From IMG/VR virus record IMGVR_UViG_3300031760_000017: 64,000 nt of DNA; one strand, 5' to 3'. Made by a program: the position numbers and the translations under genes. This DNA comes from a virus. This document shows, piece after piece, positions 8,913 to 52,236 of the stretch. Under the pieces are notes generated by a model. That model worked only from the letters and a program-made list of their open reading frames with translations, searched no databases and was not told where the DNA came from. Within the stretch, counting starts at the first letter, position 1; each line of letters opens with the position of its first letter.

Positions 8913-10181
8913 TTACTCACCTAAGATTGTGCCATCGACATACTCAAGACGTTTTACAACAAAATCACGTATCTGCAAAATGTTGTTGTCCGTCTTTCCG
9001 GGGATCGTAATAAAAGCCCCGTCTGCTGTTGTCTCTGCATAATCCTCGGCATAAAGATATGGCGGAATCTGGCTTATGAACTTGTCGAACTCTCCGAGAA
9101 TATTTCCGGCAGAAAGTACGGTTTCTCTAAGTTCCTGATACCTTGCTATTACATCGCTCTGGAAAAGATTCCAAATACGATAATGCAGGTAGTTGTCCTC
9201 TTGAAACTGCGTATATCCGTTATAATTCTCTTGGAAGATTGTGTTATAAGGACGCCATGTTACTTCTTCCTGTCGCACAAGTCCGGTCATTCCCCACGTA
9301 GAATCCAAATCGTACAAACCTGTGTACCACTGTTCTGCATCATACGTAAAAAATGTCTGATTCTTTGCGATCAGGTCAATGGCACATATAGCCCTTACGA
9401 ATATATGCATATCAATGAGCGATTGCAGGTCAATCTTTGAATCTATCCCGGCTATAAACTGCGCATCTGTTGAATTACATATAAACGCCAGTACGGAAGT
9501 CCAACTATCGGCAATGACTGTTGGCATTTCATCGTGAAGTTCATCAGACCATTTTCCATTCATTGTCGGCTGTCTGAAAAACATCGTGTTATCATCAGCA
9601 AGCCCATCTGTCTGAATAATGCAGTTTGTTTCCTCGTCAGAATCCACACCGTACATACCGTCTTTCGGTAAATTCCATGTATAAAGACCATAGTATACAC
9701 CGTTGTGGTAGACCTTGACCGGGAATCCATCAATCGCAAGATTGCTCTTTCTCAGCGTAGCAGGTAGGGATGCAAAATTACTCCTTGACCTGACTGCCTG
9801 TGACCAAAGACGGGCATTAACAATATTTCTTGCATGGCTGTGGTCTATCCAGTTTGCTTTAAGGACAAACTTATTTCTAGGTTTATCCCAATCTCTGAAA
9901 AGACGTTTGCTCTTTGATTTTCTTGCGCTGTCTGTAAAAAGATTTATCGTGTAATTTTTCTTTGGATAGTAGGCAGATGAATCTCCTTGTACTTTAGCTG
10001 TAGCGTAATCCGTGAATGATTCCGTTGCGCTCTTGTATGTTATCTTAATGTTGCTCTTGCCTTCTGTCTTTGTCGCATACAGTTCACCCTCGATGGACAC
10101 AACTGGAATATCACCGTCATTGGGTTCATATCCGCCTACGTTTACAATATTTCCATGATAATCATAAATATAAGCCATCAT
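8913..10181 (-). CDS. Tail-associated or receptor-binding protein, possibly CotH-like. Standard code and GC-rich
   Basis: Intact 422-aa ORF with no TAG. GC is about 45%, against about 28% in the flanks. SD-like AGGGGTGA upstream. Confidence 0.5.
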   Translation of the reverse strand: MMAYIYDYHGNIVNVGGYEPNDGDIPVVSIEGELYATKTEGKSNIKITYKSATESFTDYATAKVQGDSSAYYPKKNYTINLFTDSARKSKSKRLFRDWDKPRNKFVLKANWIDHSHARNIVNARLWSQAVRSRSNFASLPATLRKSNLAIDGFPVKVYHNGVYYGLYTWNLPKDGMYGVDSDEETNCIIQTDGLADDNTMFFRQPTMNGKWSDELHDEMPTVIADSWTSVLAFICNSTDAQFIAGIDSKIDLQSLIDMHIFVRAICAIDLIAKNQTFFTYDAEQWYTGLYDLDSTWGMTGLVRQEEVTWRPYNTIFQENYNGYTQFQEDNYLHYRIWNLFQSDVIARYQELRETVLSAGNILGEFDKFISQIPPYLYAEDYAETTADGAFITIPGKTDNNILQIRDFVVKRLEYVDGTILGE

Positions 10182-12757: not shown

Positions 12758-12786
12758 TTGACAAAAATAAAAATTTTTTGTATAAT
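12758..12786 (+). promoter_or_regulatory. Sigma70-like promoter: TTGACA, 17 bp, TATAAT
   Basis: Exact consensus hexamers with 17-bp spacing, upstream of the resolvase gene. Confidence 0.6.
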
Positions 12787-27263: not shown

Positions 27264-27463
27264 CCTTTTATCTCCTTTTTATATATTTAAAATCATGTGA
27301 TAAAAAATCTTCTTCTATATATAATATAAAAAAATGACATTTTTGATTATCATAACTCGACCATATACTTTTTTCTTGATGAATTATAAAAATTTTGATA
27401 TAATTTTAATATGAAATGTAAGAAAGAATATTTAAAGTTTATAAATAATATAAGGAGGAAGAT

Positions 27464-28210
27464 ATGAGTACATATGTATTTTCAGATTTACACGCTCAAT
27501 ATAATCTTTGGAAGCAAATAAAAGATTATATTAAACCAGACGACATTGTATTTTGTCTTGGTGACTGTGTAGATAGAGGTCCAGTAGGACTTGAAATTTT
27601 ATATGAAGTAATGGAAACTCCTAATATTACTTTACTACGCGGAAATCACGAAGATTTTATTGCCACTATTGGCGAAAAGATTTTAAAATGTAAATCAGAA
27701 GAAGATGTATATTGGGAGTATCCAGATGAAATATATATATGGAAAGCTAATGGCGCTTCAAATACTATTGAAGCTTTTCAAAATTTAAGTAGAAAAGAAA
27801 AAGAAGAGTTAATAAATAAAATTAAAAAATTGCCCACTTGGGCAATATATGAAAACAAAGATAATAAATTTTATCTTTGCCATGCGGGAAGACAGCCGCA
27901 AACAACAGAACATTTAATTGAAGGACGTAGCGCAATTATTCCAATGAACAATTATATTTGGGATAGAAGTCATATTTCGGATATAGTGTGGCGAGGAGAA
28001 AAAAATGAATTTTGTATTCATGGGCATACTCCAGTATTAGCCATAGACCATTATATAAATAGATATGAATTTTTACCTAAAAAAACAGATGAAATATATA
28101 TTTATTGTAATGGTCATAAAATAGATATAGACTTAGGTTCTTTTATCACTCATCGCGTATGTCTATTTAATCTTGATACTTTTAAACCAATTTATTTTGA
28201 AGATAAATAA
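27464..28210 (+). CDS. PPP-family Ser/Thr protein phosphatase or metallophosphoesterase
   Basis: Motifs DLHAQ, GDCVDRG and GNHED. No TAG. Confidence 0.7.
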   Translation: MSTYVFSDLHAQYNLWKQIKDYIKPDDIVFCLGDCVDRGPVGLEILYEVMETPNITLLRGNHEDFIATIGEKILKCKSEEDVYWEYPDEIYIWKANGASNTIEAFQNLSRKEKEELINKIKKLPTWAIYENKDNKFYLCHAGRQPQTTEHLIEGRSAIIPMNNYIWDRSHISDIVWRGEKNEFCIHGHTPVLAIDHYINRYEFLPKKTDEIYIYCNGHKIDIDLGSFITHRVCLFNLDTFKPIYFEDK

Positions 28211-28276
28211 TTAAAATTATTTATATAAGCACATTGAAAACTAAATATTATATTTTATTAAAAAAGGAGAAAAAAG

Positions 28277-29851
28277 ATGATTTAGAAAATTGTAACTACT
28301 GTAATTCCAATTTTAGTACCTATTGTAATAATCGCTCTCTTATGCCTTGCAATTACCTTAATTGGTAAAGCTATGTATAAGAAATCTCCGCCAAATATGG
28401 CAATGGTTGTAACTGGACCTTTTGGAAATAAAACAATTATTGGTAAAGGTTGTTTTGTAATTCCTATTCTTGAAAGAGTAGACTTCCTTTCTCTTGAAAA
28501 TATGCAATCAGACTTTACATCTAAAGATGACATTCCTACAAAAGATGCCATCAATATTTTAGTAGATGCAGTTGCTAACTTTGCAATTTCAACTGATCCG
28601 AAGACTCTTCCAAAGGCTGCTGCAAAATTCTTAGGTAAGAAACCAAAGCAAATTGAGGAAATTGTAAGACCGGTTCTTGAAGGTAATATCCGAGAAATTA
28701 TTTCTCAAACAACTTTAAAAGAACTTATTCAAGGTGATAAAAAGAAACTTGCAGAAAGAATTATTGAAAATGTTACTCCCAATCTTCAAGATATGGGTCT
28801 TGAATTAACAACTTTTAATATTCAGAATTTCAAAGATAAAAATGGAGTAATTGATAACTTAGGTCTTCAAAACACAGTCCAAATTAGTAAAGATGCTGCT
28901 ATTTCTAAAGCAAAAGCTGAACAGGAAATTGCAGTTGCGGAAGCTAATGCGCGAAAAGCTGCTAATGAAGCTCAAATTGCTGCGGAAACTGAAATTGCAG
29001 AAAGAGAAAATAAGCTTACAATTAAAAGATCTGAATTAAAAAAGCAGGAAGATATTAAGAAAGCAGAAGCTGATGCTGCTTATGAAATTCAGCAACAGGA
29101 ACAGCAAAAAATAATCGAAATTGCAACTGCCGATGCAAAACTTGCAAGACAAGAAAAAGAAATTGATTTGCAAGAACGTGAAGTTAGTATTAGAGAGCGT
29201 AAACTTGAAGCTGAAGTTAAGAAAACGGCAGAAGCTAGAAAATACGCTGCTCAACAGGAATCTGATGCAAATCTTTATGCAACTCAAAAGAGTTCTGAAG
29301 CTGATTTATTTGAAAGACAAAAGAAAGCTGAAGCTGAACAGTATGAAGCAGAACGACGTGCGGAGGCTCAAAAAGCTAAAGCTGAGGCTGAAAAATTTGC
29401 AAAAATTCAGGAAGCAGAAGCTATTAAAGAAACTGGTACTGCGGAAGCTGAAGCTATTAAAGCTAAAGGTACCGCAGAAGCTGAGGCTATTAGAGCTAAG
29501 GCGACCGCTGAAGCTGAAGGTTTGTTAAAGAAAGCTGAAGCTATGGAAAGATATGGTGAAGCAGCTCGTGAACAGCAAAAACTTGACGCGTTAAAGATTT
29601 ACTTTGAACAGCTACCCGCAATTGCTGAAGCTATCGGTTCAGGCTATGCAAATGTTGAAAAGATGGTTATGTTCGGAGATGATTCTTCAAAATTAAGTGG
29701 TAATATCATTAATAATATTACTCAAGTTTCTGAGGGTCTTAATGAATCACTTGGTATTGATTTAAAATCTTTAATGTCTGCTTTTATCGGTGGAAAGATT
29801 GTTGATGCAAATCATACTGAAGTAACTGAAGTAACTAAAGAAGAAGAATAA
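28277..29851 (+). CDS. Flotillin (FloT/YuaG-like SPFH protein). Codon 3 is a TAG
   Basis: The strong SD AAAAAGGAG precedes the ATG at 28277. The reading is MI*K, then a TM helix, then the SPFH domain, then EA-rich flotillin repeats. It is in frame with track ORF 28373..29851, whose own Met has no SD. Confidence 0.7.
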
Positions 29852-29860
29852 TAATTTATG

Positions 29861-29913
29861 ACAAGGAGAATATAAAAATTCTCCTTGTTTTTTTTATAAA
29901 TTTTTATTATAAT
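29861..29913 (+). terminator. Composite terminator and promoter cassette
   Basis: Hairpin ACAAGGAGAAT...ATTCTCCTTGT and T-run. TTGTTT at 29885-29890 is exactly 17 bp from TATAAT at 29908-29913. Confidence 0.6.
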
Positions 29914-29945
29914 ATATTTATAAAAATGAAAAGGAAATAAAAAAT

Positions 29946-30371
29946 ATGTTATCAGATAAAGCAATGTTAGAACTATGTCGATTGTACTATGATGAAGAGA
30001 CTTTCGAACATGTAAAAAGAGTCGCTGAATATGCTAAGGATATTTATAAACTTTATGATTATTATAAAGCAGGTGAGGAAAGATCTATTTATCATTTAGC
30101 CTTAGCTCACGACTTATATGAAGATACCGATATTTCACAAAATACTTGGTTTGATAATAATTTTGAAGCCAATCTTCAATTATTAACGAAAGACGAAGAT
30201 ATATCATACAACGATTATATTGCTAAAATTCGCAAAGAAGCAGTGATACCTACTTATAAACCTGCTTATATTGTAAAATTAGCAGACATGAAAGATCATC
30301 TTTCTCAAACTGAAACTTTAACAGAAGAACTTAAAAATAAATATATTTCTGCTATGAAATATTTACTTTAA
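29946..30371 (+). CDS. HD-domain phosphohydrolase
   Basis: H...HD motif (FEHVKRV...LAHDLYED). Confidence 0.6.
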   Translation: MLSDKAMLELCRLYYDEETFEHVKRVAEYAKDIYKLYDYYKAGEERSIYHLALAHDLYEDTDISQNTWFDNNFEANLQLLTKDEDISYNDYIAKIRKEAVIPTYKPAYIVKLADMKDHLSQTETLTEELKNKYISAMKYLL

Positions 30372-30386
30372 AAAAGGAAAATAAAA

Positions 30387-30527
30387 ATGGGAATACTTGA
30401 TGTTATTCTAATTATAAATATTGTACTTAAACTTTTAAATTTAATTACCTGGAGCTGGTGGGCAGTCCTCTGGCCGCTTTGGGTAATTTTAATAATTGCT
30501 TGTCTTCTTATTTTTGGAGATGATTAA
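30387..30527 (+). CDS. Small hydrophobic peptide, 46 aa, paralog 1
   Basis: Single predicted TM helix. Shares the ...NWSW..LWPLW... motif with the next ORF. Confidence 0.4.
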   Translation: MGILDVILIINIVLKLLNLITWSWWAVLWPLWVILIIACLLIFGDD

Positions 30528-30553
30528 TATTATAAATAAAGGAGAAATAAAAA

Positions 30554-30700
30554 ATGCTTGAAACGATTTTAATTGTAAATATTATACTTAAATTTTTTAA
30601 CTTAATTAATTGGAGTTGGAGCGCAACTCTTTGGCCGCTATGGGCGGAATTAATAATTATAGCTATTTTTTGGCTCAGTGGAAATCTTGATAAAATTTAA
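30554..30700 (+). CDS. Small hydrophobic peptide, 48 aa, paralog 2
   Basis: Tandem duplicate of the previous peptide. GGAGAAATAA SD. Confidence 0.4.
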   Translation: MLETILIVNIILKFFNLINWSWSATLWPLWAELIIIAIFWLSGNLDKI

Positions 30701-30773
30701 AATTAATTGATTTTTTATAAAATTTTTAATATAATTATAATATAAGTTATTAAAGAAAAAAGAGGTAAAAAAT

Positions 30774-32741
30774 ATGGGAAGATATGATAATGAAAATTGG
30801 GACACTTCGTCTCAGATGAATAGACAGCGAGACTTGGTTCTTTCCACAAATGAATTTTGTTTCTTGCAGTCTAAAACAAATGGTGCAATTAAAACATATA
30901 CTGGTCCTATTACCATGACAATTTCCGCTCAGGAATCTCTTGTTGTCTTTAATTCTAAGACAAAGAAATTTGAGGAAACTCAGGACTTTGAAAAGGCTAA
31001 ACAGCTCTTTATTTCTGCTCCTGAAGGATGGTATGTAGTTCTAAAGAATCCTGCGGTAGACAATTCTCATCCGGAAGCCGCAAAAGCTGTCAATAGTCCT
31101 AATCTTGAAATTGGTCGCAAGATTAATATTGGTGGACCTGTTTCCTTCTCACTGTTTCCTGGACAGATGACAAGAGTTATCAGAGGACATAGACTTCGTT
31201 CTAACCAGTATCTTCTTGCTAGAGTTTATGATGCGGACGCTGCACGTAAAGGTATTACAACAGCAACTATTGTTGATACAGAAGGCAAGGAAGTTACAGC
31301 AAAACCCGAGGAATATTTCGTTGGTCAAATGATTGTTATTAAAGGAACTGAAGTTTCTTTCTACATCCCGCCAACAGGAATCGAAGTTATTCCTATCGGA
31401 AATAGTAATGAATATGTCCGTGATGCAGTTACTCTTGAAAGACTTGAATATGCAATTCTGAAAGATGAAGATGGCGAAAAAAGATATATTCATGGTCCTG
31501 CGGTGGTGTTCCCGAAACCAACTGAAACATTTGTTTCAGCTCCTAAGGGTGGACTTATTTTCCGTGCTCTTGAACTTTCACCAATTAGCGGAATTTATGT
31601 AAAAGTAATTGCCGCATACGATGAAACAAAGAATGGTAAGAAAGTTCATCATCCAATTGGAGAAGAGCTTTTTATCACAGGAAAAGACCAGATGATTTAT
31701 TATCCACGTCCGGAACATGCTATGATTCAGTATGATGGTAAGTATATGCACCATGCTATCGCAATTCCAGAAGGCGAAGGTCGTTATATTCTTAATAGAC
31801 TTAGTGGAGAAATTAAGACTATTCGCGGTCCTCAGATGTATCTACCAGACCCGCGTTATGAAGTAGTTGTTAAAAGAAAACTTACTCCTAAAGAATGCGA
31901 TTTGATGTATCCTGGTAATATGGAAGTTCTGAAATATAATGGGAACCTTACAGAAAAAGCTGTTGAAAAGATGGCTAGTAGAGGTCTTACAGGTTCTGCC
32001 GTAACAGATGCGCTTAATAATGTATATTCAACTTCTAATCAGGAAGCAACTCTTGCTATTTTTGAAGCCAATGCAAACATTTCTCGCGGCGTAAGTTATA
32101 CAAAACCGCGCACAATTACACTTGATACTAAGTACGAAGGTGTTGTTGGAATTAACGTTTGGGGCGGATATGCTATTAATGTAGTATCTAAAGCTGGTAA
32201 GAGAGATGTTGTAGTTGGTCCAACTACTCGACTTCTTGATTATGATGAAACTCTTGAAGCAGTTGAACTTTCAGGGGGTACTCCAAAGAGTTCTAAGCCA
32301 ACTGTAAGAACAGCATTTTTACAGATTGAAAATAATAGAGTTTCTGATATTATTAATGTACAGACTTCAGACTCTGTTGCTGTTGAAATTCATCTTAGCT
32401 ATTGTGTAAGTTTCTTAAAAGAATATAAAGATTCTTGGTTTGCTATTAATAATTATGTAAAATATCTGTGTGATAATATGCGTTCTCTTGTTAAGAGAGA
32501 AGTAAGAAAATATTCTATTAAAGATTTTTATGCAAAATCTACTGAAATTATTAGAAATATTGTTCTTGATACTGAAACAGAAAAAGAACTTTTTGGTAGA
32601 TTCTTTTCTGCAAACGGCATGCTTGTAAATGATGTTGACATTATCAGAGTTACTGTTGAAAGAAACTATGAGCGTCTTCTTGAAAATCATCAGGCTGAGC
32701 TTATTCAGAAGAGTATTGATTTAGCTGATGCAGAAACATAG
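30774..32741 (+). CDS. Major vault protein (MVP)-like protein: repeat domains plus an SPFH-like shoulder. It ends in TAG directly abutting the next in-frame ATG
   Basis: 655 aa. Repeat and shoulder-like regions. The stop codon TAG at 32739-32741 is immediately followed in frame by ORF 32742.. with no SD. Confidence 0.45.
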   Translation: MGRYDNENWDTSSQMNRQRDLVLSTNEFCFLQSKTNGAIKTYTGPITMTISAQESLVVFNSKTKKFEETQDFEKAKQLFISAPEGWYVVLKNPAVDNSHPEAAKAVNSPNLEIGRKINIGGPVSFSLFPGQMTRVIRGHRLRSNQYLLARVYDADAARKGITTATIVDTEGKEVTAKPEEYFVGQMIVIKGTEVSFYIPPTGIEVIPIGNSNEYVRDAVTLERLEYAILKDEDGEKRYIHGPAVVFPKPTETFVSAPKGGLIFRALELSPISGIYVKVIAAYDETKNGKKVHHPIGEELFITGKDQMIYYPRPEHAMIQYDGKYMHHAIAIPEGEGRYILNRLSGEIKTIRGPQMYLPDPRYEVVVKRKLTPKECDLMYPGNMEVLKYNGNLTEKAVEKMASRGLTGSAVTDALNNVYSTSNQEATLAIFEANANISRGVSYTKPRTITLDTKYEGVVGINVWGGYAINVVSKAGKRDVVVGPTTRLLDYDETLEAVELSGGTPKSSKPTVRTAFLQIENNRVSDIINVQTSDSVAVEIHLSYCVSFLKEYKDSWFAINNYVKYLCDNMRSLVKREVRKYSIKDFYAKSTEIIRNIVLDTETEKELFGRFFSANGMLVNDVDIIRVTVERNYERLLENHQAELIQKSIDLADAET

Positions 32742-33263
32742 ATGAAAGCTGTAAAAGACCTTGCAGAAATGAAGCGACAGAAAGCTGATATTGAAAATCA
32801 GGCTGAGCTTTATAGAATTCAGCGTCAGAAAGAGGAAGCTGAAGCTGAAATGCAGTATAAAGAAGCTATTCAGGTTAAAAAGCGTGAAGCTGAAGCTGCA
32901 GCAGCCCAGGCTAAGAAAGACCTTCAGGAAGTTCTTAATGCAATCCAGACCGCTGAAGTTGCAAGAGAAAAAGAGAAGCATGCGGCAGAAGTTGCTCATG
33001 CAAAGGAACTTGCGGAAATTGAGAAAGCTAAGCAGGAAGCTTATGCTGCAACCGTAAAAGAAATTATGAGTTCTATCTCTCCTGACCTTGTTGCCGCAAT
33101 CAGCGCTAGCTCGAAAGCAGACCTTCTTAAAGAAGGTATGAAGAATATGTCTCCTTATGCAATCGCTAATGGAGAATCTGTTGCAGATACTGTTAACAAG
33201 CTTATGAGAGGAACTTCTCTTGAAGATGTCCTTGATAAAGCTTCTCCAAAAATTAATTTCTAA
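32742..33263 (+). CDS. MVP cap-helix-like coiled-coil domain. Probably the C-terminal part of an 829-aa read-through fusion with 30774..32741
   Basis: EA-rich coiled coil followed by ...SPDLVAAISASSKADLLKEGMKNMSPYAIANGESVADTVNKLMRG. Compare human MVP ...[46 protein letters not shown]. Confidence 0.45.
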   Translation: MKAVKDLAEMKRQKADIENQAELYRIQRQKEEAEAEMQYKEAIQVKKREAEAAAAQAKKDLQEVLNAIQTAEVAREKEKHAAEVAHAKELAEIEKAKQEAYAATVKEIMSSISPDLVAAISASSKADLLKEGMKNMSPYAIANGESVADTVNKLMRGTSLEDVLDKASPKINF

Positions 33264-33276
33264 TTTTTGACTTTTC

Positions 33277-33335
33277 CTTACAAGGAAGGAATTAAAAATT
33301 CCTTCCTTGTTTTTTTATAAAAATTATTATATAAT
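33277..33335 (+). terminator. Composite terminator and promoter cassette
   Basis: Hairpin ACAAGGAAGGAAT...ATTCCTTCCTTGT. TTGTTT is exactly 17 bp from TATAAT. Confidence 0.6.
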
Positions 33336-33368
33336 ATTTATGTAATAAAAAAGGAGAAAATAAAAAAT

Positions 33369-33539
33369 ATGGAAATAAAAGTTCAAGTTCATTATCCTTG
33401 GGCGGATGAGCCAGATTGGTGCAAGGTTCAAATTCCTGAAAATATAAGTGAAAGTGAAATTGATAAAATTGCTTATGAATTTGTTTTAGATTTGTTATTT
33501 GACCAAGGAATTAGTTGGGATTATGAAATAATTAATTAA
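33369..33539 (+). CDS. Small hypothetical protein, 56 aa
   Basis: ATG preceded by an AAAAGGAGAAAA SD. Confidence 0.4.
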   Translation: MEIKVQVHYPWADEPDWCKVQIPENISESEIDKIAYEFVLDLLFDQGISWDYEIIN

Positions 33540-33549
33540 GGAGAAAAAA

Positions 33550-33762
33550 ATGAGAGACCCAAATAGACTTTATAAATTTTATGAAAATTTAAGAGATATA
33601 CATATGACTTATTTTCCAGATTGGAGATTTGGACAACTTATACTTAATTTCTCTGGATGGTATTACAATAAATATAAAAAAGATATTTTTTATATTGAAG
33701 ACGATACAATGATAGAAGTATTTACAGAATATCTTAATTATATAAGAAATAGTATTTTTTAA
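33550..33762 (+). CDS. Hypothetical protein, 70 aa
   Basis: ORF with GGAGAAAAAA SD. Confidence 0.4.
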   Translation: MRDPNRLYKFYENLRDIHMTYFPDWRFGQLILNFSGWYYNKYKKDIFYIEDDTMIEVFTEYLNYIRNSIF

Positions 33763-33778
33763 AAGGAGATGATAAATA

Positions 33779-35017
33779 ATGCTTAATAAAAACAATGAAA
33801 GAGAACTTGCTTATGTGGTTATTGTTGATGCAGTAACTCCAATTAAAGGTTATGATAGAGTAGAGCTTGCTCATGTGGGCGGATGGACCGTTGTAGTTGG
33901 AAAAGGCGAGTTCCATGCGGGCGACCCCGCAATTTATTTTGAAATTGATTCTCAGCTTCCTGAGGTAGAGCCATTTACTAATATGGAATTTCTTGCTAAG
34001 AAACATTATAAAATTAAAACACAGAAAATGTGTAAATCTATTTCTCAGGGGCTTCTAATGTCTGCCGCAAATTTTGGATGGAAAAAATCTGCTGAAAATG
34101 CAGGTGACTTTCCATACATCAAGGATAATGAAGGTATTTGTCATTTTACAAATGATGAGTCTCGTTTCCTTACAAAGCAGCTTAATGTAACATACGCCGT
34201 TCCAGAAGATAATGCCCGCAAAGCAAATTCTGTTGATAAATATAAGAAAATGGCACAGCGCAATGGTAAGCTTTTCTCTCATCAGCCGTTTAAATGGCTT
34301 ATGAAAAAAGAGTGGGGAAGAAAACTTCTTTTCACATTCTTTGGTAGCAAAAAGGATAAGACAGGCTGGCCCGCATGGGTAAAAAAGACAGATGAGGAAA
34401 GAATCGAAAATCTTCCATATCTGTTTGAAGATAAGTCTCCTTGGATTGCTACTGAGAAAATTGATGGGACTAGCACAACTTTCACCCTGAAACGCGGAAA
34501 AGGACTCTTTAAGAAAGATGAATTTTATATTTGTTCCCGTAACGTATGTTTCGATAGACCTAATAAAAATTGTTTCTATGAAACAAATGTTTATATTGAA
34601 ATGGCTGAAAAATATAATATTTATAATAAGATGAAGCATCTTCTTGAAACAAAATATAAAGATTGTGAATGGATTACAATTCAGGGTGAGACTTATGGAA
34701 CTGGAATTCAGAAACGTGATTACCATATGACAGAACATAATTTTATGGCTTTTAACCTGATTTCCTCTAAAAATGGAAGAGAAAATTCACTTATTATGAA
34801 AGATATTCTTGAGAAGGAAAATGGTATTCCTTGTGTTCCTATTGTAGCTGACTCTTATACACTTCCGGGCACTCTTGAAGAGCTTCGTGAGTTTGTAGAT
34901 AGTGATACTTCCGTTATTGACGGAGAAATTAGAGAAGGAATTGTATTCCGTTCCACTGACGGTTCTCGTTCTTTTAAATGTGTTTCTCCAACATATCTTA
35001 TGAAATATCATCAGTAA
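33779..35017 (+). CDS. ATP-dependent RNA ligase (Rnl-family nucleotidyltransferase)
   Basis: KxDG adenylation motif (EKIDGTS). 412 aa. Sits in a cassette with the kinase and phosphatase genes. Confidence 0.6.
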   Translation: MLNKNNERELAYVVIVDAVTPIKGYDRVELAHVGGWTVVVGKGEFHAGDPAIYFEIDSQLPEVEPFTNMEFLAKKHYKIKTQKMCKSISQGLLMSAANFGWKKSAENAGDFPYIKDNEGICHFTNDESRFLTKQLNVTYAVPEDNARKANSVDKYKKMAQRNGKLFSHQPFKWLMKKEWGRKLLFTFFGSKKDKTGWPAWVKKTDEERIENLPYLFEDKSPWIATEKIDGTSTTFTLKRGKGLFKKDEFYICSRNVCFDRPNKNCFYETNVYIEMAEKYNIYNKMKHLLETKYKDCEWITIQGETYGTGIQKRDYHMTEHNFMAFNLISSKNGRENSLIMKDILEKENGIPCVPIVADSYTLPGTLEELREFVDSDTSVIDGEIREGIVFRSTDGSRSFKCVSPTYLMKYHQ

Positions 35018-37097: not shown

Positions 37098-39383
37098 ATG
37101 ACATAGAAAGAATTTATTTAGAAAGTAAAAAATCCATGTATAAATGCAACAAATATAATCGGCGGTTATCTTCCCAGCGTATTAATTGGACAAATGTGTT
37201 TATAGACTGGTTACGGAACTGGATATAATTGCGAATTATTAATGCAATGGAATAATTTGCTTGGAATGAAAACTTAGTTATTAAATGACACTTGGAAATC
37301 TAAATATTGGAATGGCAAATCCGCAACTAAAAGAACTCCAGAGTATTATGGTTACCATACAACTATTACAGATTCATTCAGGGTTTATGATAATATTTAG
37401 CAATGTGCATGTGACTATTTACAATTTATGCGCGATGCTAAATATTCTAAAAACGGAAACTATAAATATAGAGATGTTTTAACAATAAAAGATCCAACTC
37501 AACTGATTACTCAAGTATCTAAACGAGGATATGCAACAGATCCAGCTTATATTACATCTGTCATGAGTATTATTAAAAAATATAACTTAACTCAATATGA
37601 TTCAAATGGAGGGAATAAACCTATGACATTAAAATAGGCATTATCAAAACTTGGTGTTAATTTAATTAATAGAATTAGTCAGAATAGAAGCCAAGTTCCT
37701 GCTCATAATGCAAATTCACACCAATATTTTGCTGTTCACTACCTTGGTGTAAATGGTTAGAATCCAGACCTATATGGCGGCGGATATGGTGGACATTTTT
37801 ACGTAAGTAAAGATGGTAAATGCTATCAAGCCGCGGAAGTAACTGATAAACTTTGGCATGTAGGTGCTTCTTCAGGATTCTCTTATATTCATTCTTATGC
37901 AAGAAATAATAATACAATAGGAGTTGAATGCGGAACTTACACAGCTTCTGGAAGAAATAATGATAATGAGACATGGTATTTTACAGAAGCCACTCAAGTA
38001 ACTGCCGCAAAATTAGCAGCAGCTGTACTTACTGTTTATAATTTACCTATGGATCATTTATTAAGACATGGGGATATTACAACTAAAAATTGTCCATCTC
38101 CATTAAAAAGAGACCAGGGTAAAGGTAGCAACTGGACTTGGGATAAATTTAAATCAGAAGTTTCTAAATATATGGCTCAATTAGGAAATGAATCCGCTCC
38201 AACTGTTACTATTCTAAAATTAGGAAGTAATGGAAAATAGGTTAAAGAATTACAAGAAAAATTATTACTTTTAGGATTTGTAGATTGTGCTTATTACAAT
38301 AAAAATAGAAATTTCGCAGATGGTGATTTTGGATAGAATACTTTAAAATCATTAAAATATTTCCAACAAGCAAAAGGATTATAGGTTGATGGTATTTATG
38401 GACCAAAAACCGCAGAAGCATTAGATAAAGCCGTTAAAGAAGCAAAAGCTTCAAAATTTGATGTTACAGTAGATGAATTTTTAAATAATGCAAAAATTAT
38501 TGCAAAAGAAAATAAAGAAAAAGGCTTTAAATATGGTAATGCTTGTTGCTTACCTTCAGTTTATCCTTTTGAAAAAATAACATCTTGTGATAGATTTGTC
38601 GATCAAGTTTTATATAAGAGTGGATTAAAAACTGTTGGTAATCGCGGTTTTACTGATTTATAGGATTGTTTAATTAATCTTAAAGCTCAAAAAATTTATC
38701 GAGAATCTTAGTTACAAAAAGGTGATATTGTATATACAATTGGACATGTATTCATTCTTGGAAACAAAATTTCTAATACTACTTATTAGAGATACGATGC
38801 AGGTTCTGTTGAAAGAATCCAATTAACTGGACCTTATGCTAGCTATAAATCTCAGCCTTTTGTTGAAGAAATTGACCTTTTCACTTTTGCTTATAGATTA
38901 CCTTTTAAAACAAAAGAAGAAAAGAAAGAAAAGACTTCAACATTTTTAAAACTTGGTGATAATAGTGCATCAGTTAAACAAATGCAAGAAAAATTAATTA
39001 AACTTGGATATTTTGTAGGCACAGCTGGTGCGGATGGCGATTTTGGTCAAAACACATTAAAAGCATTAAAATATTTTCAATCTAATCATGGATTAACCGC
39101 AGATGGATATTATGGTCCACTTGCTAAACAAAAATTAGAAAGTATCTATAATAAAATTAAAAATTATGATACACCTACTAAACATGATAATTTAATTAAA
39201 GAGAAAATTTTTACAACAACAGACAATTTAAATTTACGTAAAGGTTCTTCAATAGCACATGAAATTATACTTTAGATTCCAAAAGGAGCAAAAGTAAAGT
39301 GGTATGGTTATTATACCGGATCTTGGTATTATGTAGTTTATAATGGAAATATTGGATATGCATCTTCTCATTATTTAAAATAA
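37098..39383 (+). CDS. Multidomain endolysin, about 761 aa, TAG-recoded with about 17 in-frame TAGs. It has a glucosaminidase-like N-terminus and an amidase_2/PGRP domain. Two PG_binding_1 repeats and a CHAP/NlpC-like region follow. A C-terminal SH3 domain completes it
   Basis: A single frame joins track ORFs 37428.., 38049.. and 38982... Motifs HGDITTKNCP (amidase_2) and ADGDFG.NTLK.LKYFQ (PG_binding_1, two copies). SH3-like C-terminus. Ends in TAA. Confidence 0.7.
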
Positions 39384-40058: not shown

Positions 40059-40826
40059 ATGAAATATATATTAAAAAATGGTTAGTAGATAGAGTCCATT
40101 GATATTGGAAAGGCTAATATCAAAATAGGGCAAAGAAATAATCGACTTACTATTTGTGATAGAGCGCCTAATACAAAATCAAAAAAAGCACGTATAATTT
40201 GTTTATGTGATTGTGGACAATACACAGTTATAAATCATCAAGATTTTAAAAATGGACAAGTTAAAAGTTGTGGATGCTATGCAAAAGAAATACATGCTGA
40301 AATAGGAAGAAAAACTGCTATAGATTTCACTCAATCATAGTACAATAATAATCCATTTTATGAATATATTGAACCTACAGATGTTAGATTTAATTGGAGT
40401 AAACAAGTAGTATGGAAGGTTAAATGTAGAAAATGTAATAAAGAATATTTAGCAATTCCTAAAGAATTAATTTCTATAAATAATAATAAGCGTATGAATC
40501 CTTGTAATTGTTGGAAAACTTATAGTATTGGAGTTCAACGTATTATTGCAATATTAGAAAAAAATAATATTTCTTATGAATTAGAAAAAAAATTTGATAC
40601 ATGTATTTCACCAAAAGGAAATTGTTTACCTTTTGATTTCTATCTTCCTGATTATAAGATTTTAATAGAATATGATGGACAACAACATTTTAATATAGCA
40701 TTTGGTCAAAATGAAAATAAATTGATTCAACAAAAAAAATATGATAAAATAAAAAATGAATGGTGTAAAAATAATAATATTCATTTAATTAGGATACCTT
40801 ATTATCAAAAAGAAATTACAATTTAG
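40059..40826 (+). CDS. Putative homing endonuclease-like protein, with a Zn-ribbon and a PD-(D/E)XK-like EYDG region. TAG-recoded with 3 TAGs
   Basis: Continuous frame from the ATG at 40059 through track ORF 40494... Consecutive TAG TAG at codons 9-10. Confidence 0.35.
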
Positions 40827-40848
40827 AATTTAATAGGAGAAAAAATTA

Positions 40849-42562
40849 ATGGGTAAATTATATACAGAAGACTCGATAGAAAGCTTATCTCCTCTCGAAT
40901 TTACACGACTTAGACCTGGTGTATATTGTGGAGACACTAATTACTCTACTCAATTATTAATTGAAATATTTTCAAATGCAGTAGATGAATACCGTAATGG
41001 ATTTGGAAATAGAATTGATGTAACTATTCTCCCTGACATGATTTCGGTTAGAGATTATGGGCAAGGATTTATTCCAAATTCATATCGGGACGATGGAAAA
41101 ACAATTCTTGAAGCGGCATTTAGTGTTTTAAATACATCTGGAAAATATCGAGATGATGGAACCTATGAAGGAACTTCTTTAGGTTCTTTTGGTATCGGTT
41201 CAAAAATTACGACTTTCCTTTCTCATTGGTTAAGAGTTAAAACTATGAGAGATTCAGAGTGGGAAGAAATATATTTTAAAGAGGGCGTATTTCAATACCG
41301 AACAAGCGGTGCTGGAGGAGTTACTGGAACTCTTGTTGAATGGCAACCTTCAGAAGAATTTTTTACTCATCCAGAAGTAGAAATTAAAAAGGTCGTAGAT
41401 TTATTTAAAACTATTACATGTCTTTGCCCTGGTCTAACAATTAATCTATATGACCATGGAAAACATACTGTTTTTGTTTCTGATAATGGAATTAATGATT
41501 TAATTGATGAAGCTGTAAAAGACACAGAGCTTATTAATAATCGTTTTTCAATGAACTTTTCAGAAGGCAAAAATAAATTTGATATGGTTCTTACTTATGC
41601 AGGCAATTATTCTTTAACAATGGTCCCATATGTAAACACTGGACTTACAGAATCTGGACCTCATATTACTCAAATCAAAACCGTTATCACAAGAGAATTT
41701 AATAAATTCTTTAAAGAAAAAAAATGGTTAAAAGATAAAGATTCTAACTTAACTGGTGATGATATTCAAGAGGGTATGTATGTAATATTTAATCTTACTG
41801 CTCCCAATGTTGGTTATGACGCTCAAGTCAAGAGTAGAATCACAAAGATTGACATGAGTCCTTTTACTTCTGCATTAAGTACAAATTTAAACATTTGGCT
41901 TAATAATAATGAAAAAGAAATAAAAATTATTTTTGAAAAAGCAACAGCCGCCCGTAAGGCAAGAGATGCCGCAAAGAAAGCAAGAGATAAAGCAAGAGAG
42001 CAAAATAAAAAGAAACAGAAAGCTCTTAAATTCGATAGTAAACTTGCAGATTGTAATTCAAAAGATAGAAGTAAATGTGAAATTTATATTACTGAGGGAG
42101 ATAGTGCATCTGGTAATTTAAAGCTTGCTCGTGATAATGAAACACAGGCGGTTATGCCAGTTAGAGGTAAAATTTTAAATACTCAAAAAGCTACTTTTGC
42201 ACAGATTCAAAAAAATGCAGAAATTATGACAATGTGTGATGCCTTCTTTGGACCTGGAGACTGGTCTATTGACCCTAAGACTCTTAAAGTAACTTATAGT
42301 CAAGTAAGATATGGCAAAATAATCATTATGTCAGATGCTGATTGTGATGGAGCGCATATTAAAAATCTTTTTTACACCTTTATATGGAATTTCTGTCCTG
42401 ATCTAGTTCAAAAAGGGTATGTTTATGCTGGGGTTCCCCCGCTTTATAAAATTACTCTTCCTGCAAATAAAGGATATAAATATTTAAAAAATGATGAAGC
42501 ATTAAATGAATTTAAAAGCAAGAATAAAGATAAAAAATATCAGATCGGACGCATGAAAGGGT
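40849..42562 (+). CDS. gyrB: DNA topoisomerase II / gyrase B-like subunit, exon 1
   Basis: GHKL ATPase, TOPRIM motifs (EGDSA, PVRGKILN, IMSDADCDGAHI). Exon 1 ends ...RMKG plus one nt (U). Confidence 0.7.
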
Positions 42563-43595
42563 ACGAGTTAGTCTGGCCCTTAGCTACTTTTCCGCGGATC
42601 GGCGGGGTTGCCTAAAATAGGCAGCTAACGAGGTAGTCTTCTATTTAAAATTTTGGACATTTTAGGATAATCTGAAATGTGAAATTTTTATAATATATAG
42701 AAGATAATCTCGTGGGAAAAAATTACGATATTATCTCCAAAAAAATTAAAGGAGATAAAATAATGATAGGAATTTATAAAATTACAAATTTACTAAATGG
42801 TCATAGTTATATTGGATTATCTACTCATATTGAAGATAGATGGGAATATCATAAAAATCCATATAACTGGAATAGAGAAAAGAATAAATCTTTATACAAA
42901 GCAATTTTAAAATATGGTATCGAAAATTTTTCTTTTGAAATACTTGAATAGTGCTTACCAGAACAGTTAAGTGAAAAAGAAAAATACTATATTGAAAAAT
43001 ATAATACATATCATGCTGGTTATAATATGACTGCCGGCGGTGAAGATAATCAAGGTGAAAGTCATCCAAGACACAAATTAACAAAAGAAGATGTGATAGA
43101 TATTAGAACTAGATATGACAATCTTGAAAGAAAAAAAGATGTGTATTAGTTATATAAAGATAGAATTGGAGAAAGTGGTTTTTCTAAAATTTGGAAGGGC
43201 AACACTTGGACTTCTATAATGATGGAAGTTTACACTCCTTAGAATAAAAAATATCATTTACATGATACGGCAAATAAAGGCTCTCAAAATGGAAGAGCTA
43301 GATTAACTGAATAGGATGTAAGAGCTATTCGATTAAGAAGAAAGAACGGCGAAAAATTATCTGATGTATATGCAAATTATAAACATCTTTTAACCAAAGG
43401 GTCTTTTACGAATATTTGGTCGTATCAAAATTGGAAAAATATCGTAGTTTAAACCTGTATCGACTATCCCCTTTGTCGGGGAGTACATCTCTTATTGATA
43501 CAGAGATGGAAACAGTAGCGCCCTATGACTACAGTAAATGCGTTAGTACGAGGGCAAGAAATAGTCAGTGCCATTGGTAACAATGGATTAACACG
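42563..43595 (+). mobile_element. Group I intron in the gyrB-like gene. It carries a GIY-YIG homing endonuclease ORF
   Basis: The 5' exon end AAGGGU pairs with the internal guide sequence GCCCUU (42576-42581). The pairing has a G.U wobble at the splice site. The intron ends in omega-G at 43595. Splicing restores KGLGEM...NPNNRIIKQITVEDVAAADKLFNDLMGN, a canonical GyrB C-terminus. The intron ends are GC-rich and structured. Confidence 0.65.
42712..43452 (+). CDS. GIY-YIG homing endonuclease inside the intron, TAG-recoded. The start is at 42712 or 42763
   Basis: GIYKITNLLNGHSYIGLS motif. The frame continues through 4 TAGs to TAA 43450-43452. Confidence 0.6.
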
Positions 43596-49146: not shown

Positions 49147-50091
49147 ATGGTTGTATTAACAATAATAGATATTATTATTTTTTGTGTTGCGATAGTATTA
49201 ATTCATAAAGCTGATTTAAAAAAAGTTAATATCGCTAAATAGCAATAGAAGAAACAACAGTTAATCAATTAGATTAAATAGTTATCTGATACATACAATG
49301 ATTATAATTTAAAAATACAAAACATCCTTCAAGAAACTCAAATTGTTAAAGCTAGAGCTGAAGAAACAACAGCTAATTATATTGCTAATCAAAAACAAAT
49401 AGCACTCGATTATATTAATAATCAATAGCAATTAGCAGAACAAAAAATTAAAGAAATAAATGCTAATACTTAGCAAGAAATTGCGGCAATTCATGAAGAT
49501 CTTCAAAATATTAGGTGTTCTGCCGCACAATAGAAAGAACAAATTCAAAACGAGCTTAATAAACTAAAAGCCTCTTTGAGTGCGGGCGTAGAAGCCCGCC
49601 TTCGCGAACAATAGAAAAAAGATAAAATTAATTTTTATAAACTTTCTATTAGTGATGCGGATTTAGCTGATGTTAAAATGCTAGAAAATTTAAAAGCATC
49701 TTTCCATAAACCTGTTGTTTTAAGTAAACTTATTTGGACTCAATATTTTCAAAAGCAAATGACTGAATTGTGTGATAGAGTACTTGGTAAAAAAACTGTT
49801 TGCGGCATTTATAAAATTACCAATTTATTAACAGAACAATGTTATATTGGTCAAAGTGTTAATATTAGTGATAGATGGAAACAACATTGTAAATGCGGCC
49901 TTGGTATAGAAGCATCAGCTACCAATATTTTATATAATTCAATGCAAAAAGATAAAGTTTGGAATTTTACTTTTGAATTATTATAGGAGTGCCCGCGTAA
50001 TTTACTAAATGAAAAGGAAGCTTTTTGGATTGATACTTATAGTAGTAATATATATGGATTAAATACTATGAAAGGAATTAATAAAAAATGA
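49147..50091 (+). CDS. TM plus Q-rich coiled-coil protein fused to, or followed by, a GIY-YIG nuclease domain. TAG-recoded with about 9 TAGs
   Basis: The frame is continuous from the ATG at 49147 through track ORF 49678... Motif GIYKITNLLTEQCYIGQS. The TAGs sit in Q-rich contexts (Q*Q, NNQ*QLAEQ, AAQ*KEQIQ). Confidence 0.45.
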
Positions 50092-50942
50092 AATTTTAGA
50101 ATACAGATGTCTGGGGATTTTAGCATGCAATCAGGGGTATGAGAAATCCTAAAAATAGCTGGAATAAAAGTGATAGTCTTTTTGAAATTGCTTATATCGA
50201 ACAAATGGAGGCTGATTGGGAAGTCGCTTCAAGTTATGTCGATGCAAATGAAAAATATGATTTTTAGAGTGAATATGATAAATATTATGAAGCACAAGAA
50301 AAATATGCGGATTGGCTTCTTAAAAATGGTGTTTTAAAAGATCAAAATGAATGTTTTAGTTATGCTTTTATTGGACCAAATGATATGAAACTGGCTCAAA
50401 CTCTTATTAAAGCTGGTCCTGAACACCGAAAATTTCTACGCCAAATCTTTGTATCTGTTGATATTACTGCACCACTTTATTGGTGGAAATAGATGGATCA
50501 ATATAAAATTGGGACAGTCACAGATAGCACATCAACTATGCATAAACTAACGAGTAAACCTATTACTCTTGAAAGTTTTGAAATTGATGATTTTAATCCA
50601 GAAATTGTATATTACGAAATTCTTGATGCTCAAAATGATATTGGTATGCTTGCGGATTTTATAATTGAACAACTTGAATTTCTTCGTCAAAAATATCTTG
50701 AAACAAAAGACAAAAGATATTGGAAAGAATTAGTACGATGGTTGCCTGAAAGCTGGTTACAAAAAAGAACATGGACTGCAAATTATGAAGTTCTTTATTC
50801 TATAGTTTTACAAAGAGGGCATCATAAATTAGAAACAGAATGGGATAAAGGTTTTATACATTGGTGCGCCTCATTGCCATATGCAAAGGATTTGATTTTT
50901 TATGGAGAAGAACGAGAAAAAATATATAATTTATATGCATAA
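50088..50942 (+). CDS. Hypothetical protein, 284 aa, 3 TAGs
   Basis: The frame is continuous with track ORF 50493... ATGA overlap with the upstream gene. Confidence 0.4.
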
Positions 50943-51528
50943 AAATAAAATTAATAATAAAATGTATATAGGACAAACTTGCCAAAATCCACCATCAAAA
51001 AGATGGAAACCTTGTAATTATAAAGGATCTTCAAGATTTTATAATGCTATTTTAAAATATGGTTGGATTAATTTTGAACATATTATTTTAAAAAAATGTT
51101 CTTCACTATAGGAAGCAAATTAGTAGGAAAGAAATTTTATTAGTCAATATCAAACTACAAATCCAGAATTTGGATATAATATTATGCCGGGTGGCTCTAA
51201 TAAAGAAATTCCTTTATAGGTTCGAGAAAAAATGTCTAAAAATCATAGAGATGTTAAGGGGAAAAATAATTATTTTTACGGAAAACATTTTAAAGGTAAA
51301 GAACATCCATTTTATGGACAACATCATTCGGATGAAACTAAACAAAAATTAAAAAAATCTTTATTAAATAAAAATGGAAAAGCAGTAAAATGCATTGAAG
51401 AAAATAAAAATTTTCCTTCCGCAAGAGAAGCTGCAAGATATTATAATATGAAAACTTCTAGTCACATTTCTGCATGTTGCAATGGCAAAAGACAAACTGC
51501 TAATAAATTTCATTGGGAATATATTTAA
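50902..51528 (+). CDS. GIY-YIG homing endonuclease with NUMOD-like C-terminal modules, TAG-recoded
   Basis: KMYIGQT...ILKYG GIY-YIG region. The frame joins track ORFs 50902.. and 51232.. through 4 TAGs. Confidence 0.5.
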
Positions 51529-51800: not shown

Positions 51801-52181
51801 ATGACTAAAAAAGAAAGATTTATTGAATTTGTTAATGAACTCATGGAAATGGTAGATATAAACGAATGGGATGAGGATGAAAAAAAAGATTGGAAAGATG
51901 CTTTTGATTTTTTTGAAGAACTTAAAAATAATAAAGTAAAAACCGCAAAAGAAATGACTGAAAACGGTACCAAACTTCTTTCTTGGATGCAAGAGAATAA
52001 AGAAAAAATGTCAAATGTCTTTACATCTAAGGAAGCTGCGGAAGGACTTTTCACAAGCGGCCGCTCTATTGCAGGAACCATGAGAAAGTTAGTAAATGAT
52101 GGTTATGTAAAGAAAACTGGTAAAGACCCTGTTCAGTATTCTTTAACTGAAGCTGGAGAAAATTATCAGTTTGACAATTAA
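51801..52181 (+). CDS. Hypothetical acidic protein
   Basis: Intact ORF with an SD. Confidence 0.4.
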   Translation: MTKKERFIEFVNELMEMVDINEWDEDEKKDWKDAFDFFEELKNNKVKTAKEMTENGTKLLSWMQENKEKMSNVFTSKEAAEGLFTSGRSIAGTMRKLVNDGYVKKTGKDPVQYSLTEAGENYQFDN

Positions 52182-52236
52182 AAAATTTTTTGTTATAATA
52201 TAAAAGTAAAGTTGATTTAATTTAAGGAGAAAATTA

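Follow-up and report, generated by a model that had tools for sequence, protein, structure and literature searches.

An in-frame TAG at codon 3 of a phage flotillin gene and a modest N-terminal bias of TAG in the TAG-poor genes of a recoded phage group

We analysed a stretch of viral DNA of 64,000 nt (IMG/VR record IMGVR_UViG_3300031760_000017; hereafter the window) in which a flotillin gene and a Sak4-like ATPase gene carry in-frame TAG codons close to their starts. The stretch comes from a tailed phage of ~140 kb that uses TAG as a sense codon. Its G+C content is 30%, and open reading frames (ORFs) of 100 codons or more span 45.9 kb when read with the standard code versus 69.1 kb when TAG is sense. 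Once TAG is read in this way, a tape-measure gene of 2883 codons (71 TAGs) and a tail-fibre gene of 1563 codons (26 TAGs) emerge. We counted 203 in-frame TAGs in 23 of 56 curated genes, all 56 of which end in TAA or TGA and none of which needs TAG as a stop. Reading these many TAGs as sense restores full-length homologous ORFs, a hallmark of a recoded phage. Shine-Dalgarno (SD) sites are present ahead of the genes. The nearest GenBank phages are those of Bacillus and other Bacillota, at best ~40% identical in amino acids, and the host is probably a member of the Bacillota. TAG density is uneven, with none in many genes and 2-8 per 100 codons in others. The TAG-rich genes encode tail and baseplate proteins, an endolysin, a tyrosine recombinase, GIY-YIG homing endonucleases and RuvC-like, ThyX-like and RecJ-like proteins; the replication genes are mostly TAG-free.

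The flotillin gene and its surroundings contain the following features:

27376..27404, + strand: sigma-70-like promoter TTGATG-17-TG-TATAAT, 10/12 consensus plus extended -10 TG, intergenic, 60 nt before the ATG at 27464 (consensus match only)
27464..28210, + strand: NinI-like Ser/Thr phosphatase gene (Pfam Metallophos 3.8e-14, phrog_246 4.7e-32), TAG-free
28264..28269, + strand: Shine-Dalgarno sequence AAGGAG, 7-nt spacer to the flotillin ATG, invariant in the related loci L001, L002 and L004
28277..29851, + strand: flotillin (FloT-like) gene, 524 codons with a single TAG; 28 related phage loci
28283..28285, + strand: in-frame TAG, flotillin codon 3, upstream of the sole membrane helix
29860..29899, + strand: intrinsic-terminator-like hairpin (12-bp stem and T-run) after the flotillin gene
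30774..33263, + strand: MVP-like gene (Vault_3 / MVP_shoulder), a single 829-codon ORF with Pfam matches and one TAG at 32739-32741 (codon 656)

Like bacterial FloT and eukaryotic flotillin-1/2, the encoded protein has an N-terminal anchor, an SPFH (Band_7) domain (PF01145, 1.1e-21, residues 37-215) and a long Ala/Glu-rich coiled-coil, the EA repeats of which are seen in the translation. Flotillin-1/2 structures in the PDB match it at 1e-45 (human flotillin-1; 9bq2, 9l3g), and the NCBIfam FloT model does so at 3.5e-76. The latter match, at 257 bits, lies below the equivalog cut-off of 700, and the C-terminal Flot domain (PF15975, 1.6e-5, 25.4 bits) falls just below its 27-bit cut-off. Unlike the bacterial and eukaryotic flotillins, this one is phage-encoded, has no match among the PHROG families, would need TAG decoding for its translation and lies near a second SPFH-superfamily gene (the MVP-like gene) and a Ser/Thr phosphatase gene. 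A first-pass annotation, made by a model from the letters alone, had described a FloT-like flotillin with membrane segment, SPFH domain and EA repeats that neighbours such a phosphatase and an MVP-like gene, and the profile and structure matches agree with it on the flotillin identity, the SPFH domain and the two neighbours. Flotillin found only 10 matches among 50,697 GenBank phage records, and a megablast search of GenBank phages with the flotillin module returned no match. The module itself (27464..35017) is conserved in L001-L006 and consists of the phosphatase, flotillin, an HD-domain protein, the MVP-like protein and an RNA ligase; relatives with as little as ~68% identity still carry flotillin and the MVP-like gene together.

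The flotillin gene opens with ATG (28277-28279), ATT and TAG (28283-28285), and no further TAG occurs in its 524 codons. Codon 4 is followed by 27 uncharged, mostly hydrophobic residues (KIVTTVIPILVPIVIIALLCLAITLIGK) that read as the N-terminal anchor. The next in-frame ATG, GTG or TTG is the ATG at 28373, which has no ribosome-binding site. Initiation at the AUU at 28289, past the TAG, was rejected, as it lies 19 nt from the SD sequence and offers no canonical start. In 28 of 28 phage flotillin loci, an N-terminal hydrophobic helix lies upstream of the YKKxPPN motif, with a Met 30-36 codons before that motif; homologues beginning at 28373 with a non-conserved upstream region were not what we found. 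Since this helix is present in all of them, 28277 stands as the true start and the TAG at codon 3 is coding. The earlier reading of a strong ribosome-binding site, a start at 28277 and a lone TAG at codon 3 of 524 was thus sound. The flotillin TAG is restricted to one shallow clade, the window and three sequences at 85-91% nucleotide identity (L001, L002 and L004 carry it), and the 24 other phage flotillins have none. Its conservation within the clade is uninformative, because these four sequences share 96% identity over their entire 5' region.

The second gene, encoding the Sak4-like ATPase, lies in a similar setting:

52171..52199, + strand: sigma-70 consensus promoter TTGACA-17-TG-TATAAT, 12/12 plus TG, intergenic, before the 52237/Sak4 pair
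52237..53238, + strand: TAG-free gene (phrog_2367, function unknown), ahead of Sak4 in the same apparent operon
53255..54295, + strand: Sak4-like ATPase gene, 346 codons (phrog_124, 7.7e-51), TAGs at 53282-53284 (codon 10) and 53336-53338 (codon 28, inside Walker A)
54305..54341, + strand: terminator-like hairpin, 15-bp stem, after Sak4

The N-terminus of this protein reads MADINIFNI[TAG]PHQVSRNLRGYSIFFYG[TAG]PKSGKT, and no further TAGs follow. The two TAGs had been noted before and inside the Walker A motif at codons 10 and 27; the placement is right, and the second is codon 28. Like Sak4 (phrog_124), the protein has a Walker A of the form GxPKSGKT and is encoded in a replication/recombination module beside a DnaB-like helicase; unlike other Sak4 proteins, it has position 2 of the motif encoded by TAG in this clade. 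A role in single-stranded DNA annealing or recombination would follow from annotation, and a PDB search with the sequence returned no match, so that no solved structure is detectable by sequence. The phrog_124 match covers residues 6-329. The upstream PHQVSR...GxPKSGKT region is kept in all full-length homologues among the 72 compared, and none of these lacked the upstream Walker A. The next in-frame ATG, at 53429, has only a weak AGGA 3 nt upstream. Sak4 sequences of at least 92% identity without exception retain TAG at codon 10, codon 28 or both, and at no other codon. More remote homologues are mostly without TAG, and the gene is TAG-free in two clearly recoded phages with a tRNA(CUA), 3300021400_000126 (L055/L117) and 3300021399_000007 (L064/L116). 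Across the family, TAG sites vary among codons 10, 28 and 41, and codon 10 exchanges TAG with CAA among relatives. In L078-L080, L091 and L092 the Sak4 frame stops after ~99-127 codons and homology resumes downstream, suggesting an insertion (intron, intein or homing endonuclease).

Flotillin and Sak4 are each second in a promoter-to-terminator pair whose first gene is TAG-free, the promoters being consensus matches only. The arrangement of gene 58217 followed by the RecJ-like gene 58423, with a TAG at codon 4, is similar. Four promoters in the window match the sigma-70 consensus perfectly at 12/12 (52171-52199, 54329-54357, 58154-58182 and 12758-12786), and three of them also have the extended -10 TG. 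The distance to the next gene start downstream is 25-38 nt in each case, and several of these promoters, together with a strong terminator, delimit short operons of two to three genes. We rejected such promoters as a classifier of early and late genes. They do not define timing because similar ones precede TAG-rich genes (RuvC-like, tail-fibre) as well as TAG-free ones, and the 'early gene' status given to flotillin and Sak4 in the first-pass annotation is not established.

As both starts lie upstream of the TAGs, full-length flotillin and Sak4 depend on TAG decoding, a solid conclusion. The tRNA genes of the window are the tail of a larger array:

396..1395, + strand: tRNA genes Gln-UUG, Gly, Arg and Cys, the last four of a 24-tRNA array

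An Rfam scan of the window found these four tRNAs and nothing else. In nine of nine closest relatives tested, the syntenic tRNA array includes a tRNA(CUA) (for example L109:4904-4977 and L142:5049-5122), at a spot equivalent to ~3.8 kb upstream of the window start. The closest relatives are IMG/VR contigs of 140 kb and 144 kb, which carry the flotillin and Sak4 orthologues on the same contigs as the tRNA(CUA). We infer that this very genome has the suppressor in the array just upstream of the window. An exact tRNA-Gln pattern search in viral contigs gave 0 matches. In the relatives' arrays, ARAGORN also calls tRNA-like genes with a four-base anticodon (taaa), a tRNA(UUA) ochre-suppressor-like gene and a tmRNA gene (L119:4387-4460, L123:3502-3575, L124:3679-3752, L126:3764-3837, L127:4313-4386, L163:6139-6237; L116:6561-6635; L117:8425-8702). 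Directly after the array in the window lies a DUF2828/DUF7788 'RNA-binding protein' gene (1491..3014; phrog_850, 5e-124), and the interval 480-940 between tRNA genes, with no ORF and no Rfam match, could hold a structured RNA.

The amino acid inserted at TAG was examined by a Codetta-like decoding test on 50 family alignments with TAG masked, comprising 491 TAG columns. The pooled score was +192 for glutamate (Glu) and -112 for glutamine (Gln), and the same procedure decoded nine minor codons correctly. Among conserved columns, in which at least 80% of the non-TAG orthologues share one residue, Glu was found 68 times and Gln 16 times (37 and 3 in unanimous columns), and the TAG column profile was like that of the GAG control and unlike that of the CAG control. 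The window clade alone gave 17 Glu and 2 Gln conserved columns. Within families, one additional TAG goes along with the loss of 0.48 Glu and 0.18 Gln. A sister lineage at 53-66% protein identity, from IMG/VR sample 3300045988 (e.g. L119, L123-L126, L175), scored +57 for Gln with nine conserved Gln columns and no Glu column; all other loci scored +217 for Glu and -155 for Gln, with 68 and 8 conserved columns. TAG columns matching conserved Gln, as expected under genetic code 15, are thus a property of the 3300045988 lineage and not of the window lineage. This clean split doubles as an internal positive control for the decoding method.

Individual sites agree with a Glu meaning, above all in the endolysin:

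37098..39383, + strand: endolysin gene (GH73 glucosaminidase, Amidase_2, two PG_binding_1 and SH3_3 domains by Pfam), 14 TAGs including codons 3, 8 and 36

In its GH73 domain (PF01832, 3.3e-23), the TAG at 37203-37205 (codon 36) aligns with the catalytic Glu of FlgJ structures (2zyc, 3vwo, 7qfu, 3k3t), with GQMCL[TAG]TGYG in the phage and AQAALETGWG in the structures; the 3k3t chain has Ala there. In 13 endolysin relatives (among L189-L202) this column is TAG (in two lineages) or GAA/GAG and never Gln, and the N-terminus MT[TAG]KEFI[TAG]KV corresponds to MTEKEFIE in relatives. Reading Sak4 codon 28 as Glu restores the family consensus GEPKSGKT, and nearly all other homologues have Glu at that position. 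The suppressor tRNAs of the Glu lineage share a longer D-loop with phage tRNA-Glu genes, which they often adjoin, and the sole Gln-lineage suppressor tRNA examined has a tRNA-Gln-like look; this likeness lends weak backing to the lineage split. Our initial assumption had been that TAG means Gln, given the depletion of CAG in TAG-rich genes and the TAG/CAA exchange at Sak4 codon 10, and was abandoned in the light of the decoding results. In the tyrosine recombinase, a 'conserved Gln' of such enzymes is encoded here by an ordinary Gln codon and not by TAG, and a PDB search with the ThyX-like protein found no match. TAG and CAA do replace each other in some columns, and among sequences of at least 90% identity the Gln partners outnumber the Glu partners, which weighs against Glu; the excess at close range is explicable by the single transition between TAG and CAG, yet leaves room for ambiguous decoding. 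On balance we consider it likely that TAG specifies Glu in the window lineage. The sister lineage would read it as Gln, and related lineages therefore seem to differ on the same codon.

We then asked how the TAGs are positioned within genes. In the window, clustering was tested on the 56 curated genes against a uniform null or a within-gene shuffle of Gln-codon labels. Taken together, the TAG-bearing genes have more TAGs than expected in their first 5-20 codons; the first 10 codons hold 9 TAGs compared with 3.9 expected under the uniform null and 3.1 under the shuffle. In the nine genes with one or two TAGs the clustering is weak (p ~0.03-0.25, depending on the cut-off), and the five genes below 0.7 TAG per 100 codons have 3 TAGs in their first 30 codons versus 0.5 expected (p ~0.01-0.02, post hoc). 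The lone TAG of the MVP-like gene lies at codon 656 of 829, a counterexample to clustering; it is a sense codon, as orthologues have CAG or CGT there and read through.

A larger set of 188 related loci (2.98 Mb), collected around flotillin, Sak4 or the DUF2828 gene, gave a clearer result. Genes were called with TAA/TGA stops and the most upstream SD-supported start, proteins were clustered and counts were weighted by family. In genes with one or two TAGs, the ratio of observed to expected TAGs was 2.8 (confidence interval (CI) 1.6-4.3) in the first 10 codons, 2.3 (bootstrap CI 1.7-3.0) in the first 30 and 1.9 in the first 50. Measured against Gln-codon positions, the enrichment was 1.7-2.2, and against Glu-codon positions (GAA/GAG) it was 2.3; the 79 families absent from the window gave 2.2 (1.55-2.9) in the first 30 codons. 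The first TAG in TAG-poor genes lies at a median of codon 46 versus 93-100 expected (p ~5e-5). Among 62 codons, TAG ranked first for N-terminal enrichment in TAG-poor genes, and CAA (1.11) and CAG (0.85) were not enriched. Genes with more than two TAGs reached only 1.0-1.2, and in TAG-rich genes of the related loci we looked for an earlier-than-expected first TAG and did not find it.

Over-extension of gene starts could create such a bias artificially. In a sham read-through of TGA, 174 of 205 sham sites fell in the last two deciles of genes and 7 in the first 50 codons, compared with 97 of 204 TAGs in the first 50; since so few sham sites lie near starts, over-extension is not the source of the bias. 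Inspection by eye of 16 families also placed the N-terminal TAGs within conserved N-terminal sequence, and this artefact was rejected on both grounds. AT-richness was rejected as a cause as well: CAG is depleted to 0.78-0.85 in the first 30 codons of all gene classes, too small an effect for a 2.3-fold excess of TAG. TAG and other codons are alike in the base that follows them (+4 context), and at equal divergence TAG codons are not obviously more conserved than CAA/CAG. The presence of TAG is sporadic across families, and different members use different N-terminal sites (Sak4; families 2116, 3067 and 1808). Collectively, the N-terminal bias of TAG in TAG-poor genes of this phage group is real and modest, two- to threefold. 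The permutation test that the first-pass annotation had suggested for TAG positions in TAG-poor genes gives a non-random distribution in the related loci (2.3-fold, first 30 codons), and the window alone is suggestive only.

We favour, with a probability of roughly 0.6, position-dependent purifying selection under incomplete or delayed suppression over conserved, purpose-built gates as the explanation of this bias. The phage tRNA(CUA) from the array just upstream would read TAG, most likely inserting Glu. Only when this tRNA outcompetes host release factor 1 (RF1) could flotillin be made in full (M-I-E-K-...) and Sak4 with its Walker A intact (G-E-PKSGKT); without suppression, ribosomes would halt after 2 residues in flotillin and after 9 or 27 in Sak4. 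While suppression is incomplete, early in infection or throughout, a TAG would be cheapest near the 5' end, where it yields only short abortive peptides, wastes little translation and leaves no truncated domains. TAGs far from the start would be purged from TAG-poor genes, and TAG-rich late genes, expressed under efficient suppression, would show no bias. The net effect may be a passive throttle, dependent on the suppressor, that acts on the second gene in each of two sigma-70-type operons (phosphatase-flotillin and 52237-Sak4). We infer selection as the cause, as well as the competition with RF1 and the timing. The patchy presence of TAG among relatives argues for tolerance rather than an essential gate.

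Several points weigh against this explanation. If suppression were fully absent early, a TAG at any position would block equally; for the cost argument to hold, suppression must be partial or the truncated products must be toxic or wasteful. The bias is modest in size and was measured with a simple, custom-made gene caller. In the larger related set, codons 2-5 show no TAG enrichment, so that the codon-3 TAG of flotillin is unusual even under the bias; the several TAGs at codons 3-5 in the window are a trait of this clade. Every Sak4 of at least 92% identity keeps at least one of its two TAGs, which could reflect maintenance. No tRNA with a CUA anticodon was found among the four tRNA genes of the 64-kb window, and the suppressor is thus not inside it.

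The first-pass annotation had seen the N-terminal amber codons as deliberate gates that make these proteins suppressor-dependent. The dependence holds up. The deliberateness is not shown, given the patchy TAGs, the TAG-free Sak4 of recoded relatives, the late MVP-like TAG and the lack of enrichment at codons 2-5. In its strongest form this idea is an evolved timing gate, in which 5'-proximal TAGs were selected to delay or limit flotillin, Sak4 and other proteins until suppressor tRNA accumulates, uncoupling their translation from that of the TAG-free gene ahead on the same transcript; we regard both the gate and this uncoupling as unlikely. The position of flotillin, Sak4 and the RecJ-like gene (58217 -> 58423) behind a TAG-free first gene would fit such a gate, as would the retention of TAG at codon 10 and/or 28 only in all close Sak4 relatives, the different N-terminal sites used by different members (codons 10, 28 and 41 in Sak4; the three families named above) and the specificity of the bias for TAG-poor genes. 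However, a gating codon should be conserved across recoded orthologues, and here it is not: 24 other phage flotillins lack it, its conservation in the four near-identical flotillin sequences is uninformative, Sak4 is TAG-free in recoded relatives with a tRNA(CUA) (L055 with L117, L064 with L116), and the MVP-like gene of the same module has its TAG late. Evolved translational timers, taken alone, are a doubtful prospect, and the joint proposal is a more doubtful one still, namely that TAG means Glu by way of a tRNA-Glu-like suppressor charged by host GluRS, that the sister lineage reads Gln and that early TAGs are evolved translational timers.

Neutral drift or chance, with TAG merely another synonymous codon whose positions are meaningless, would agree with the lack of significance at most cut-offs in window genes with one or two TAGs, with the free exchange of TAG for GAA/GAG and CAA/CAG among relatives and with its patchy presence among orthologues. 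But the bias replicates in families outside the window with CIs that exclude 1, TAG is the most N-terminally enriched of all 62 codons and exceeds even GAA/GAG positions, and a codon absent from many genes and present at 2-8 per 100 codons in others is not neutral; we consider chance improbable. The earlier view that leftover codon usage is the lesser explanation is supported by the positional excess in the related loci, although a gate is not shown and position-dependent selection fits better. Wrong starts, with the proteins beginning at Met 28373 and 53429 and the TAGs lying in a leader or acting as stops, are the literature default for single N-terminal in-frame stops, and in-frame ATGs do exist at these positions; the flotillin membrane helix and the Sak4 Walker A lie upstream of those Mets and are conserved in every homologue, the phrog_124 match begins at Sak4 residue 6, and neither ATG has more than the weak AGGA at 53429, which refutes this reading for both genes and leaves it a very small probability. 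The bar sites of phage lambda are two-codon minigenes, AUG-AUA-stop, and the resemblance in sequence alone of the flotillin start (a strong SD, then ATG ATT TAG) to a minigene that releases fMet-Ile-tRNA before suppression and perturbs host translation makes for an explanation of negligible probability, as related phages show no excess of TAG at codons 2-5.

The features of this phage amount to a variant of known stop-codon recoding with two new aspects, the N-terminal bias in TAG-poor genes and the probable Glu meaning. TAG is read as Gln (genetic code 15) in crAss-like, Lak, Garnet and Topaz phages (10.1101/2021.08.26.457843; PMC9523058) and in phAss-1 (PMC10607447), and the published model holds that recoding separates early from late translation. 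As in those phages, the host presumably uses the standard code, TAGs accumulate in structural and lysis genes but are absent from many replication genes, and a tRNA(CUA) is phage-encoded, here in the arrays of the closest relatives. Unlike in those phages, TAG aligns with Glu in the window lineage. Borges et al. found only TAG to Gln and TGA to Trp among phages with a code unlike that of the host (10.1101/2021.08.26.457843). They also reported that the integrases of recoded prophages avoid the recoded codon and treated single terminal TAGs in integrases as start errors (10.1101/2021.08.26.457843); unlike these integrases, the tyrosine recombinase of the window (7690..8703, - strand; PF00589, 3.1e-36) carries 10 TAGs. 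In the recoded-phage literature searched, we found no description of a positional N-terminal TAG bias in TAG-poor genes. A phage case of TAG to Glu was likewise not found in the literature searched, coverage of which was incomplete.

Among eukaryotic nuclear codes, UAG means Glu in peritrich ciliates (code 30) and Blastocrithidia (code 31), genome-wide and with an altered eRF1. The codon and the inferred amino acid are the same here; unlike in codes 30 and 31, a viral tRNA would impose this reading on a bacterium that uses the standard code, and the codon would mean Gln in a sister phage lineage.

Further genes of the window bear on the distribution of TAG. Homing-endonuclease-like genes (GIY-YIG and others) at 40059..40856, 42763..43452, 49147..50091 and 50902..51528 have 4-9 TAGs each, and the second of them spells the GIY-YIG 'iLEEC' motif as ILE[TAG]C. 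These TAG-rich genes are inserted between TAG-free gyrase, ligase and replication genes, which indicates that mobile genes use the phage code. A CotH-kinase-like gene (8913..10181, - strand; PF08757, 5.9e-28) is TAG-free and CAG-rich within an otherwise TAG-rich tail module. The largely TAG-free CotH-kinase-like, MVP-like, RNA ligase and DUF2828 genes prefer CAG over CAA for Gln, suggesting a different origin or expression class.

Annotation of recoded phages assumes code 15 (TAG as Gln) by default and takes single terminal TAGs for errors in start calling; our findings challenge both practices. The N-terminal bias would be a quantitative signature of incomplete or delayed suppression when TAG-poor genes are translated, and from it the model of a code switch during infection gains a prediction at the sequence level, open to testing in every recoded phage clade. 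The phage flotillin, MVP-like protein and phosphatase form an unexplored membrane-scaffold set. If TAG indeed means Glu here and Gln in the sister lineage, one stop codon would have been reassigned to different amino acids within one phage family, all predicted proteins of the lineage, including the catalytic Glu of GH73, would be mistranslated by current pipelines, and a natural Glu amber suppressor system would exist.

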